Positions 1 to 30,715 of a DNA stretch of 64,000 nucleotides are shown in pieces. The DNA lies in NCBI RefSeq assembly GCF_036507355.1, contig NZ_AP027877.1; one strand, given 5' to 3'. Made by a program: the position numbers and the translations under genes. The stretch is from Escherichia coli (GTDB lineage: Bacteria > Pseudomonadota > Gammaproteobacteria > Enterobacterales > Enterobacteriaceae). Below the pieces are notes generated by a model, which saw only the letters and a program-made list of their open reading frames with translations, ran no database searches and had not been told where the DNA came from. The first letter of the stretch is position 1. Every line of letters begins with the position of its first letter.

Positions 1-524
1 TTTAACGTTTTGAAACGATTATTTGTTTGGTTTTTTGAATTTGGTAAAAACAAACGGTTATAATTTTCAGGGAGTGCCAAATAGCTGAACTCGGTATTTG
101 CGATAAGATGTTGACAGAGGATAAATTCATAACTAACAGTTATTGTTTCTGTATCCAGTTGATTTTCAATGATCTGATGATGAATAGCCGATAAAAAAGC
201 GCCTCTTAGTTGTATATAATAATACTTTTCCCATCTGCCAAATCTATTGATTCTATAAAAGTCAAATCCCATAAATAATTGCTCATTATTGTTAATGGAA
301 TTAATAAGTAATGGAGTGCTTTTATCAATTAATTTACAAAATGTTATACCCTGTAACTGTGAACCAAGCCCCGTATTAGTAATGCTATTTGCGAGTGAGA
401 ATGTAAATATTTCATTCTCATGCCCGCTCTGCCAGCGATTACCTATAGATTCAGTAGTCCCACAACCTGCGGAGATGCTTCCTTGTTGTTCTCCCGTTAC
501 TGTCAGGTAAACAATATTACTCAT
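1..524 (-). CDS. yhhZ: Hcp-family (T6SS Hcp1-like) protein, N-terminal part only; start codon at 522-524, no stop before the window edge
   Basis: Manual minus-strand translation from ATG at 524 gives MSNIVYLTVTGEQQGSISAGCGTTESIGNRWQSGHENEIFTFSL...FYRINRFGRWEKYYYIQLRGAF..., open to position 1. Hcp-like motifs; K-12 synteny next to yhhY; strongly AT-rich. Absent from the ORF track because it has no in-window stop. Confidence 0.6.
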   Translation of the reverse strand, partial: MSNIVYLTVTGEQQGSISAGCGTTESIGNRWQSGHENEIFTFSLANSITNTGLGSQLQGITFCKLIDKSTPLLINSINNNEQLFMGFDFYRINRFGRWEKYYYIQLRGAFLSAIHHQIIENQLDTETITVSYEFILCQHLIANTEFSYLALPENYNRLFLPNSKNQTNNRFKTL

Positions 525-760
525 CCCTGAAAAGTCCTTTTATGGCATGCTATTTTATCAATGGCACTATTATGCTTGTTAATTGTTATTTATTTACTCC
601 AGGAAATTGTAGGCGTATATATTAAAAAATAAAATATTACACTTTAGGAAGTAATTATGAGGTAAATCTCAATATATTTATTGGGAAAATAAATATATTA
701 AAGGAAGGTATGCCGATTTTGAATGACACCCTTTTTCCATCTCAGAAAAAGGGCACTATC

Positions 761-1249
761 TTACTTCACCCGCGCCATATAATACGCATCGACATATTCA
801 CCATTACGCAATGCGTACTTCTTACCAGTCCCTTCAATTTCAAAGCCGTATTTTTTATAGACCTTAATTGCCGGGGCGTTATCGACAAACACGGTTAGTT
901 CAATGCGATCTACCCGCAACCAGTTGTCGCACATTTCAATCATCTCTCGCATAAGGGCGCTGGCGACGCCGCGATTCTTCCAACGGGAGTCGACACAGAT
1001 ACCAAAATCGGCAACATGACTGCGGCGTGGGCGCTGTTGCACGTCAATGGTGAGATGACCCACGACGTCTCCATCAATACAGGCGACGAGTTGCTTGATG
1101 CCGGGACGATCGGCGAGTCGCTCCTGCCACATATGATCGGAAGGATGAGGCACCTGTAGTGTGTTGTAATACACCTCCGGCTGGGCGTGAATCTGCCTGA
1201 TGGCCTCGTAATCGCGCGTTTCAGCATGGCGTATCACTATCTCACTCAT
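761..1249 (-). CDS. yhhY: GNAT-family N-acetyltransferase (162 aa)
   Basis: ORF 761..1327; internal Met (MSEIVIRHAETRDYEAIRQIH...) at 1249 matches the remembered YhhY N-terminus; synteny. Confidence 0.85.
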   Translation of the reverse strand: MSEIVIRHAETRDYEAIRQIHAQPEVYYNTLQVPHPSDHMWQERLADRPGIKQLVACIDGDVVGHLTIDVQQRPRRSHVADFGICVDSRWKNRGVASALMREMIEMCDNWLRVDRIELTVFVDNAPAIKVYKKYGFEIEGTGKKYALRNGEYVDAYYMARVK

Positions 1250-1333
1250 TCCTTTGTCCTCTTTGGGGGAAATGTCCCTTTCAACATCATTGACTTTCGA
1301 ATGCGAGTCAAATGCATTTTTTTGCAAAAAGTG

Positions 1334-1370: not shown

Positions 1371-1460
1371 GCGATCAGGAAGACCCTCGCGGAGAACCTG
1401 AAAGCACGACATTGCTCACATTGCTTCCAGTATTACTTAGCCAGCCGGGTGCTGGCTTTT
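1371..1460 (+). ncRNA. ryhB: RyhB small RNA (Fur-repressed iron-sparing sRNA) with intrinsic terminator at its 3' end
   Basis: Sequence gcgatcaggaagaccctcgcggagaacctgaaagcacgacattgctcacattgcttccagtattacttagccagccgggtgctggcttttttttt matches the remembered RyhB sequence; lies between yhhY and yhhX as in K-12. Confidence 0.9.
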
Positions 1461-1582
1461 TTTTTTGATCTTTCGTTCTCAATTTATCCACGGGAGTGCT
1501 TGTGTTCGTTATGCGCACTCCAGTAGGAACCACGCCCGCTTTGCGCTAAGGTGTAAATAACCACCTTAAAAAGGACGAAATT

Positions 1583-2620
1583 ATGGTCATCAACTGCGCC
1601 TTTATTGGCTTCGGCAAAAGCACCACCCGTTACCATCTGCCGTATGTACTTAACCGCAAGGATAGCTGGCATGTCGCGCATATTTTTCGTCGCCATGCGA
1701 AGCCGGAAGAACAGGCTCCCATTTATTCCCATATCCATTTCACCAGCGATCTCGACGAAGTGCTAAACGATCCCGATGTTAAGCTGGTTGTTGTCTGCAC
1801 CCATGCGGATAGCCACTTCGAGTACGCGAAGCGCGCGCTGGAAGCCGGGAAAAATGTGCTGGTCGAAAAACCGTTCACTCCGACGCTTGCGCAGGCGAAA
1901 GAGCTGTTTGCTCTGGCGAAAAGTAAAGGGCTGACCGTCACGCCATATCAGAATCGTCGCTTTGATTCCTGCTTCCTGACGGCGAAAAAAGCGATTGAAA
2001 GCGGCAAGCTGGGAGAGATTGTCGAAGTGGAAAGCCATTTTGACTATTACCGCCCGGTGGCAGAAACCAAACCTGGGCTGCCGCAGGATGGCGCGTTCTA
2101 TGGCCTTGGTGTGCATACGATGGACCAGATTATTTCTCTATTCGGTCGCCCGGATCACGTCGCTTATGACATCCGCAGCCTGCGCAATAAAGCCAATCCT
2201 GACGATACTTTCGAAGCGCAACTGTTTTATGGCGATCTAAAAGCCATCGTCAAAACCAGCCATCTGGTGAAAATCGATTATCCGAAATTTATCGTTCACG
2301 GTAAGAAAGGTTCGTTTATTAAATACGGTATCGACCAGCAGGAAACCAGCCTGAAGGCTAATATTATGCCGGGCGAACCGGGATTCGCAGCGGATGATTC
2401 GGTCGGTGTGCTGGAGTATGTCAATGACGAGGGCGTGACGGTCAGAGAAGAGATGAAGCCGGAGATGGGCGATTACGGGCGCGTTTATGATGCGTTGTAT
2501 CAAACCATCACCCACGGTGCGCCAAATTACGTCAAGGAATCTGAAGTTCTTACGAATCTGGAAATCCTTGAACGCGGATTCGAGCAAGCCTCTCCCTCCA
2601 CAGTGATTCTCGCGAAGTAA
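1583..2620 (+). CDS. yhhX: Gfo/Idh/MocA-family NAD(P)-dependent oxidoreductase
   Basis: 345-aa ORF with an N-terminal Rossmann region; synteny. Confidence 0.85.
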   Translation: MVINCAFIGFGKSTTRYHLPYVLNRKDSWHVAHIFRRHAKPEEQAPIYSHIHFTSDLDEVLNDPDVKLVVVCTHADSHFEYAKRALEAGKNVLVEKPFTPTLAQAKELFALAKSKGLTVTPYQNRRFDSCFLTAKKAIESGKLGEIVEVESHFDYYRPVAETKPGLPQDGAFYGLGVHTMDQIISLFGRPDHVAYDIRSLRNKANPDDTFEAQLFYGDLKAIVKTSHLVKIDYPKFIVHGKKGSFIKYGIDQQETSLKANIMPGEPGFAADDSVGVLEYVNDEGVTVREEMKPEMGDYGRVYDALYQTITHGAPNYVKESEVLTNLEILERGFEQASPSTVILAK

Positions 2621-22599: not shown

Positions 22600-22825
22600 A
22601 AAAAGAACAAATGGTAGTGTCCGCTATTGCCAGTACACCTCACAGCTTGGTTTTGCGTTGGGATATTATTGCCAGTGGCGCAGCAAAAATAGATGCCAGA
22701 TACGGAAGTGGAGTGAGTGGGGAACGTGCTTAAGTTTTGTTACGTTGGGTATGATGGCGTGGGCTTTGCGGTAATTCCCTGAATCAAAAAGTAGGTCAGA
22801 TTGTTGACAACGTGGCACTTTGTTC

Positions 22826-22862
22826 ATGCCTGATGCGGCGTGAATGCCTTCTCAGGCCTACA
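22826..22862. repeat. REP element (gcctgatgcggcgtgaatgccttctcaggcctac)
   Basis: Matches the REP consensus pattern GCCTGATGCGRCG...GGCCTAC; downstream of glpD. Confidence 0.7.
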
Positions 22863-22895
22863 AAATCATGCAAATTCAATATATTGCATAAACCA

Positions 22896-22928
22896 CGTAG
22901 GCCTGATAAGCGTAGCGCATCAGGCAAT
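22896..22928. repeat. REP element, inverted relative to the preceding copy (BIME-like pair)
   Basis: gtaggcctgataagcgtagcgcatcaggc. Confidence 0.7.
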
Positions 22929-29653: not shown

Positions 29654-30673
<1,020 letters not shown>

Positions 30674-30686
30674 TATAAAGATGTAA

Positions 30687-30710
30687 GCCGGATCCAATGC
30701 ATTATCCGGC
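30687..30710. terminator. Palindromic REP-like hairpin (gccggat...atccggc) between convergent rtcA and malT
   Basis: Inverted repeat seen in sequence. Confidence 0.5.
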
Positions 30711-30715
30711 TAAAC

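Follow-up and report, generated by a model that had tools for sequence, protein, structure and literature searches.

The left edge of a 64-kb stretch of an Escherichia coli chromosome (the window, meaning the whole stretch of DNA that was analysed) holds, on the minus strand, the 5′ part of yhhZ, which encodes a protein that begins with an Hcp domain, i.e., with the tube subunit of a type VI secretion system (T6SS). We read window positions 1–760 as the promoter-proximal end of a toxin/immunity islet made up of yhhZ and yrhA. On this reading, which we hold at a probability of roughly 85%, YhhZ is a DNase composed of an Hcp domain, a linker and an HNH nuclease domain that is delivered by a T6SS and neutralised by YrhA, and the islet is bound by H-NS. 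DNase activity, dependence on the system T6SS2, immunity, and H-NS binding are taken from the literature, while the Hcp identity of the open reading frame (ORF) in the window, the domain architecture, the catalytic motif, the DNase fold, the orthology, and the genomic context come from the present analysis. The function of yhhZ is already known and the gene has been described; the initial annotation of the stretch, which had seen in it a likely orphan Hcp effector, described it correctly.

The Open Reading Frame and Its Hcp Domain

The yhhZ frame starts with an ATG at 524–522 and runs on the minus strand to position 3, giving 174 translated codons with no stop, as had been noted initially; each of the remaining five frames over 1–524 contains 9 to 23 stops, and, with bases drawn at the local composition, a frame would stay open over 174 codons with a probability of about 1e-6. 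The predicted N-terminus of YhhZ begins MSNIVYLTVTGEQQG. The feature at 1–524 (minus strand) thus comprises codons 1–174 of about 392 of yhhZ (hcp-ET1; “tssD” in RefSeq) and, within these, the Hcp domain (amino acids 1 to ~150) together with the start of a conserved linker. The yhhZ-like naming of this edge gene was correct.

The closest genome is that of E. coli PapM-32-1. Window positions 1–1300 match 5423 of the 5426 complete E. coli genomes, with PapM-32-1 at the top (99.5%); identity of at least 99% over this segment is reached in just 10 of the 5423. Two small differences excepted, the whole 64 kb is collinear with PapM-32-1, in which the YhhZ homologue has 392 amino acids and differs from residues 1–174 of the window at one position, residue 86. 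The window allele is a rarer variant common to PapM-32-1 and GF3-3. Relative to the common E. coli allele, most of its substitutions are clustered in Hcp residues 24–60 (window 350–450), a sign of either a minor allele or a patch of local recombination.

Membership of the N-terminal part in the Hcp family had been proposed at the outset and is borne out by the curated models. The 174 residues match NCBIfam TIGR03344 (Hcp1/TssD) with 124.4 bits, well above the curated cut-off of 58.9, and Pfam T6SS_HCP (PF05638) with an E-value of 1.7e-12. The full-length homologue matches the solved Hcp structures 3he1 (5.6e-12), 6a2v (2.8e-11) and 5mxn, with E-values ranging from 6e-12 to 1e-10; the solved chains are 163 to 195 amino acids long, as opposed to 392 in the homologue. 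In the AlphaFold2 (AF2) model, built on a 14-sequence alignment, residues 1–176 are poor (predicted local distance difference test, pLDDT, below 50), even if their top Foldseek matches are Hcp structures (E ~7e-5); this part of the model is unusable, and Hcp membership therefore rests on the sequence models.

The HNH DNase Domain

According to the initial annotation, the C-terminal part of the protein, where a toxin domain would be expected, and any immunity gene lie to the left of the window. In PapM-32-1, both an HNH DNase domain and the gene yrhA are indeed found there. The 392-residue homologue consists of the Hcp domain (residues 1 to ~150), the conserved linker (~175–230) and the HNH toxin domain (~245–383), so that an Hcp domain and a C-terminal toxin are joined in one polypeptide; the window covers residues 1–174 of it, its edge cutting off the C-terminus.

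In an alignment of the homologue with 13 orthologues (51–95% identity; A1), residues H324, H325, N339 and H349 are invariant, as part of the motif V-H324-H325-K-L-x-L-D-D-x-G-x-N335...N339-L...H349. This corresponds to VHHKLxLDDxGTNxxxNLxLIxxxxYH (VHHKLSLDDGGTN...NL...YH), a pattern that marks HNH (His-Me finger) nucleases. The single sequence matches Pfam HNH weakly (E 0.015), and the similarity of the toxin domain to Pfam Col-Pyo_DNase is also weak (E 0.3–1.7).

A search of residues 175–392 against 1.8 billion representative proteins returned 642 clusters, in which residues ~245–383 recur, at 40–50% identity, at the C-termini of proteins of 170 to 1542 amino acids. In an alignment of 22 members of this distant toxin domain (A3), the residues equivalent to H324, H325, N339 and H349 are invariant in all 22; each of them matches Pfam HNH at E ≤ 0.1, and 12 still do so at E ≤ 0.001. 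The corresponding profile matches Cas8f-HNH (7.6e-5), the pyocin AP41 DNase (0.005) and pyocin S2 (0.065). In the AF2 model based on the A1 alignment, residues 270–380 are predicted with confidence (pLDDT 81–96), and Foldseek superimposes them on the pyocin S2 DNase (4qko_B) with a root-mean-square deviation of 2.5 Å over 77 columns and a probability of 1.0; further matches are pyocin AP41 (4uhp) and ColE7 (2jaz, 1znv). The domain combines the catalytic ββα-metal motif with a structural resemblance of its model to solved HNH DNases.

For the N-terminal parts of the distant carriers of this toxin domain, NCBIfam was uninformative; a Pfam scan of the members resolved them as LXG, PT-TG, PAAR-like, MuF-C and WXG100 proteins. 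Given carriers this varied, the HNH domain is best regarded as a mobile toxin module that is common to type VI and type VII secretion substrates.

Identity with Hcp-ET1 and ETI1

[quoted passage not shown] (2017, Virulence 8:1189). By the same accounts, Hcp-ET1 reaches the target cell through T6SS2 and degrades its DNA, and ETI1 neutralises the toxin. In strain C227-11 (O104:H4), AAF13_RS24945 is yrhA and AAF13_RS24950 is tssD, and both are situated between ggt and yhhY; it is to this pair of genes that the locus tag given for Hcp-ET1 in one review (AAF13_24945) maps. Strain 55989 encodes an identical 392-residue protein (WP_000065896.1) at the same locus, which is 95% identical to the PapM-32-1 protein. 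Furthermore, a preprint from 2024 describes, for STEC O22:H8, an orphan Hcp-HNH and a downstream gene that are 99% identical to Hcp-ET1/ETI1 of C227-11 and 55989. YhhZ thus shares both the locus and a high degree of identity with Hcp-ET1, and from these comparisons of sequence and position we conclude that yhhZ corresponds to hcp-ET1 and yrhA to eti1.

YhhZ had also been noted before. In 2009 it was called an “evolved Hcp” whose HNH domain is degenerate (Blondel et al., PMC2907695), and in 2017 it was listed as the type member for group 32 of the His-Me finger proteins (PMC5714182).

The Putative Immunity Gene yrhA and the Genes Beyond It

In PapM-32-1, yhhZ is followed by yrhA (164 amino acids), yrhD (51 amino acids) and yrhB (94 amino acids), and then by the convergent gene ggt. 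In E. coli, yrhA overlaps the stop codon of yhhZ by 4 bases, and a yrhA homologue (63–68% identity) follows the HNH-type Hcp-ET in Citrobacter koseri and C. freundii. By its position, yrhA would be the immunity gene directly downstream of the toxin, as had been anticipated from the truncated ORF.

Searches of YrhA against Pfam, PDB (sequence and profile) and PADLOC gave no meaningful match, and neither Im7/Im9 nor any solved structure showed detectable similarity to it in sequence. Its AF2 model has a mean pLDDT of 54, which is too poor to search. In UniRef, two members of YrhA clusters are named “SMI1/KNR4 family” (SUKH), for which Pfam gives no match, and NCBIfam files the protein solely as “YrhA family”. 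Three database proteins of 552 to 556 amino acids (P0001, P0004, P0005) are as long as YhhZ and YrhA taken together (392 + 164). Each probably results from read-through or a frameshift at the ATGA overlap in an individual assembly, the likely cause being an error of sequencing or gene calling.

The genes further downstream may point to a history of other toxins at this locus. Pfam assigns YrhB to the Imm35 immunity proteins (E 4.6e-23; L001 6121–6405), and its homologue in C. portucalensis (72% identity) stands directly after an Hcp-ET with a Gln_amidase toxin; the E. coli yrhB comes after a different toxin and therefore looks like an orphan immunity gene. The yrhD gene together with 90 bases upstream resembles an 84-residue gene product encoded after a Salmonella Hcp-ET (42% over 59 amino acids, E 9e-12 in a small search), and the spacer between yrhD and yrhB resembles the products of 85 to 101 amino acids encoded after the Hcp-ETs of 417 and 402 amino acids of C. 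freundii and C. rodentium (38–40% over 53 amino acids). Both regions, located at L001 6444–6847 of PapM-32-1 to the left of the window, look like decayed immunity relics.

Distribution and Age of the Islet

The islet extends from the ggt stop codon to that of yhhY over 2677 bp, with a GC content of 33.9% compared with 0.521 for the window. The yhhZ C-terminus together with yrhA is carried by 3808 of the 5426 genomes (70%). An unrelated DUF4225 gene (303 amino acids; L005 4879–5790), the copies of which are at least 99% identical, occupies the slot in 343 genomes belonging to the O157:H7 lineage, and in some genomes the slot is empty, with ggt and yhhY 60 bp apart. Wherever the islet is missing, the match to the window breaks off at 759–763, i.e., at the yhhY stop codon. 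Low GC content and variable presence are, thus, combined with a sharp boundary.

Outside E. coli, an Hcp-toxin gene is present at the same slot in C. koseri, C. freundii, C. portucalensis, C. rodentium and Salmonella enterica. The Hcp-plus-linker part (amino acids 1 to ~229) is common to these proteins, after which they diverge fully into different toxins. Between E. coli and Citrobacter, identity is 85–98% for the flanking proteins, 76–79% for the Hcp domain, 58–60% for the toxin domain, and 63–65% for YrhA. The islets are AT-rich in all four that were measured, with 38–43% GC versus 50–55% in the flanking yhhX. No relation was found by BLASTP between the DUF4225 gene of O157:H7 and the 294-residue gene that precedes hcp-ET in Citrobacter.

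The low GC content had been taken initially as consistent with horizontal acquisition. The variable presence of the islet and its sharp boundary at the yhhY stop codon fit that proposal; a recent acquisition is not supported, since Hcp-ET genes fill the slot in five other species and the locus is old. The AT-richness found also in related genera therefore speaks for a long-lived, fast-evolving locus with cassette exchange and not for a recent arrival. AT-richness as proof of recent acquisition was accordingly rejected, the slot being both occupied and AT-rich in Citrobacter and Salmonella.

A more far-reaching proposal is that a constant Hcp-plus-linker part has been combined with exchanged toxin/immunity cassettes at an ancient ggt–yhhY slot, that yrhD, yrhB and the spacer between them are leftover immunity genes, and that strains without a T6SS, K-12 among them, keep the islet for its immunity content. 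We consider the chances of this proposal to be evenly balanced. The occupation of the slot across genera and the immunity relics would be a modest addition to the published picture, which may or may not be new.

Base Composition, H-NS and Expression

The GC content is 0.338 over 1–524 and 0.292 over 525–760, as opposed to 0.515 in yhhY, 0.511 in yhhX and 0.521 in the whole window, and positions 1–760 have the lowest GC content among 1265 sliding windows (32% versus 52% for the window). The AT-richness noted at the outset relative to the two neighbouring genes is thereby put in numbers. The region upstream of yhhZ (525–760, minus strand; 29% GC) is the presumed promoter region of the gene and, by the islet boundary, the right-hand end of the islet. 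A promoter scan of 525–760 on the minus strand found no good sigma-70 consensus. An Rfam scan of 1–760 found no RNA family.

In E. coli K-12, promoter islands within yhhZ and yrhA are bound by H-NS and are predicted to be foreign DNA (PMC3661553, Table 1, a compilation of chromatin immunoprecipitation on microarrays, ChIP-chip), so that, for the possible H-NS silencing raised in the initial annotation, binding over both genes is on record in K-12. H-NS motif matches are five-fold enriched in 1–760, an enrichment that mostly reflects the AT content.

An inverted repeat, CCCTTTTT-N12-AAAAAGGG, was read from the sequence at 728–755 within the islet, a few bases past the yhhY stop codon, and may be a transcript end for yhhY. 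The terminator scan passed over it because it has just three G-C pairs and no T run.

Proposed Mode of Action and Alternative Explanations

In the T6SS-delivered mode of action, the Hcp domain would let YhhZ enter the inner tube of the T6SS. Upon firing of the system (T6SS2 in the published STEC work), YhhZ would be expelled with the tube into a neighbouring cell, where the nuclease domain would degrade the DNA, and YrhA (ETI1) would protect the producer and its kin. At rest, H-NS would bind the AT-rich islet and probably silence it until induction. As to how a 24-kDa extension would fit in the tube, mixed hexamers with canonical Hcp have been proposed in the literature, as a suggestion only. 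For the strain at hand, we infer that it carries a full-length yhhZ and a T6SS able to fire the product. Within the window, yhhZ stands apart from any T6SS apparatus: no T6SS structural gene adjoins it, and among the annotated genes of the collinear 64-kb counterpart in PapM-32-1 there is no T6SS gene besides yhhZ, in line with the “orphan” status and the lack of further T6SS genes stated initially.

Several points weigh against a T6SS-delivered, YrhA-neutralised DNase. Just 174 of ~392 codons fall within the window; the toxin domain, the neighbouring immunity gene and an intact remainder of yhhZ were read from a genome with 99.5% identity and not from the strain at hand. In the AF2 model, the Hcp region is unreliable. 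One review lists Hcp-ET1 under AAF13_24945, a number that maps to yrhA and not to tssD (RS24950); we attribute this offset by one gene to re-annotation. K-12 has no T6SS yet keeps yhhZ; therefore, in some strains, the gene cannot work in this way. Finally, the earlier PMC2907695 took YhhZ (like Usp) to be “not linked to T6SS function”.

The main alternative, of which K-12 is a case, is that yhhZ in this strain is a silent relic, which for want of a compatible T6SS or owing to H-NS silencing does not serve as a weapon, and that the islet is retained mainly because the immunity genes yrhA and yrhB shield the cell from neighbours firing such toxins, or has simply not yet been lost. The intact yhhZ of K-12 is accompanied by a yrhA that is split by IS1, the K-12 locus is occupied by H-NS, and a deletion of yhhZ–yrhA arises spontaneously in laboratory K-12 with no harm reported. 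The islet is missing, through loss or from the outset, in about 30% of E. coli genomes, and the decayed immunity relics adjoin yrhA. Against this, the Hcp domain, the linker and the catalytic residues are conserved across genera, the yhhZ ORF is intact as far as the window extends, an intact coding sequence is annotated in every E. coli genome among the matches listed, and the STEC orthologues are active according to the reviews. We regard a silent relic as a possible but rather unlikely account.

That YhhZ is an evolved Hcp acting independently of a T6SS, either as a bacteriocin-like protein that lysis sets free (a mode once put forward for Usp) or in an intracellular role with Hcp as a scaffold, would accommodate both the statement of Blondel et al. 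(2009) and the retention of the gene in K-12. Later work, as cited in reviews, found killing by Hcp-ET1 to be T6SS2-dependent, however, and no lysis or receptor-binding module was detected in YhhZ by the NCBIfam and Pfam scans, which makes such a role improbable. A plain structural tube protein, i.e., a spare Hcp subunit with no part as a toxin, would fit the RefSeq label “type VI secretion system tube protein TssD”, which many records use, as well as the match to the TssD model above its curated cut-off. This reading is rejected on domain architecture and is very improbable, given that the homologue is more than twice as long as a solved Hcp chain (392 versus 163–195 amino acids), that a conserved HNH DNase domain makes up its additional 218 residues, that an immunity-type gene overlaps its stop codon, and that no T6SS structural gene is adjacent.

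Neighbouring Genes and Other Features of the Window

The islet is bordered by the core gene yhhY (761–1249, minus strand), which encodes a GNAT N-acetyltransferase, followed by yhhX (1583–2620, plus strand); both names were transferred from E. coli genomes with up to 99.5% identity. The gene order in the window is yhhZ, yhhY, RyhB, yhhX, yhhW, gntRKU, yhgN, asd, glgBXCAP, glpD, glpEGR and rtcRBA, continuing with malT, malPQ, gntT ... feoABC, ompR-envZ, pckA ... mrcA/hofM.

The small RNA RyhB is encoded at 1400–1464 (plus strand) between yhhY and yhhX (Rfam RF00057, 83 bits versus a gathering score of 55), with a Fur-box-like AT-rich stretch upstream and a terminator hairpin at 1439–1457. Between glgP and glpD (~18400–21400), there are two genes for PstS-family phosphate-binding proteins and a hypothetical gene, which are present in PapM-32-1 and 55989 too. 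An IS3-family insertion sequence element of 1.26 kb at 21379–22640, with orfA at 21443–21745 and orfB at 21781–22599 (NF033516, 335 bits), is the sole extra DNA of the window in comparison with PapM-32-1. After this element and before glpD, positions 22862–22904 (plus strand) match Rfam ES036 (CssrF) with 43.6 bits versus a gathering score of 37.6. Between rtcA and malT, the window has 49 bp (30663–30711) where PapM-32-1 has a GNAT-toxin/DUF1778-antitoxin pair instead (L007 20951–21705).

Significance and Comparison with Known Systems

As a discovery, the yhhZ finding itself matters little, considering that the evolved Hcp with an HNH domain has been on record since 2009 and Hcp-ET1/ETI1 since 2017. 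However, recent papers on K-12 still refer to yhhZ and yrhA as “of unknown function”, the RefSeq label “tssD / tube protein” hides the toxin, and work on K-12 and on Hcp-ET has stayed in two separate literatures. With its immunity relics, the locus illustrates on a small scale how cassettes are exchanged at one fixed chromosomal slot in Escherichia, Citrobacter and Salmonella, and it could serve as a marker for strain typing or competition phenotypes. The Hcp-toxin arrangement as such is, according to reviews, confined to the Enterobacteriaceae.

The closest known counterparts are Hcp-ET1/ETI1 of the STEC and enteroaggregative E. coli strains STEC004, O104:H4 C227-11 and 55989, which share with the window gene the locus ggt-yrhB-yrhD-yrhA-hcpET-yhhY and the 392-residue Hcp-linker-HNH architecture, at 95% identity to the homologue. 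The window allele differs from Hcp-ET1 in being the rarer one, with its substitutions in Hcp residues 24–60, which does not imply any functional difference. YhhZ of K-12 (b3442) is an orthologue, with ~97% DNA identity over window 1–1298 in K-12-derived genomes; unlike in the locus of the window homologue, the downstream yrhA of K-12 is split, by IS1E, and a T6SS is missing. Hcp-ET2 to Hcp-ET5 and the Citrobacter and Salmonella proteins have the Hcp-plus-linker part in common with YhhZ (amino acids 1 to ~229, 65–76% identity) and occupy the same yhhY–ggt slot (yhhX–ggt in Salmonella), but they carry other toxins (Gln_amidase PF15644, Colicin_D PF11429, PF21814, and several unassigned ones) and other immunity genes.

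Beyond the Hcp-ETs, the DNases of colicins E7/E9 and pyocins S2/AP41 resemble YhhZ in the ββα-metal fold and the catalytic His/Asn/His residues, and each of them has an immunity protein of its own, encoded just downstream, that neutralises it; they differ in their mode of delivery, which relies on receptor-binding and translocation domains as opposed to the Hcp/T6SS tube in the case of YhhZ. Evolved VgrG, PAAR-Rhs and LXG polymorphic toxins follow, like YhhZ, the principle of a structural or adaptor domain with an exchangeable C-terminal toxin and a subsequent immunity gene, and LXG, PT-TG and PAAR-like proteins even carry the same HNH domain (40–50% identity). What sets YhhZ apart from evolved VgrG, PAAR-Rhs and LXG proteins is its carrier, which is the tube subunit Hcp.

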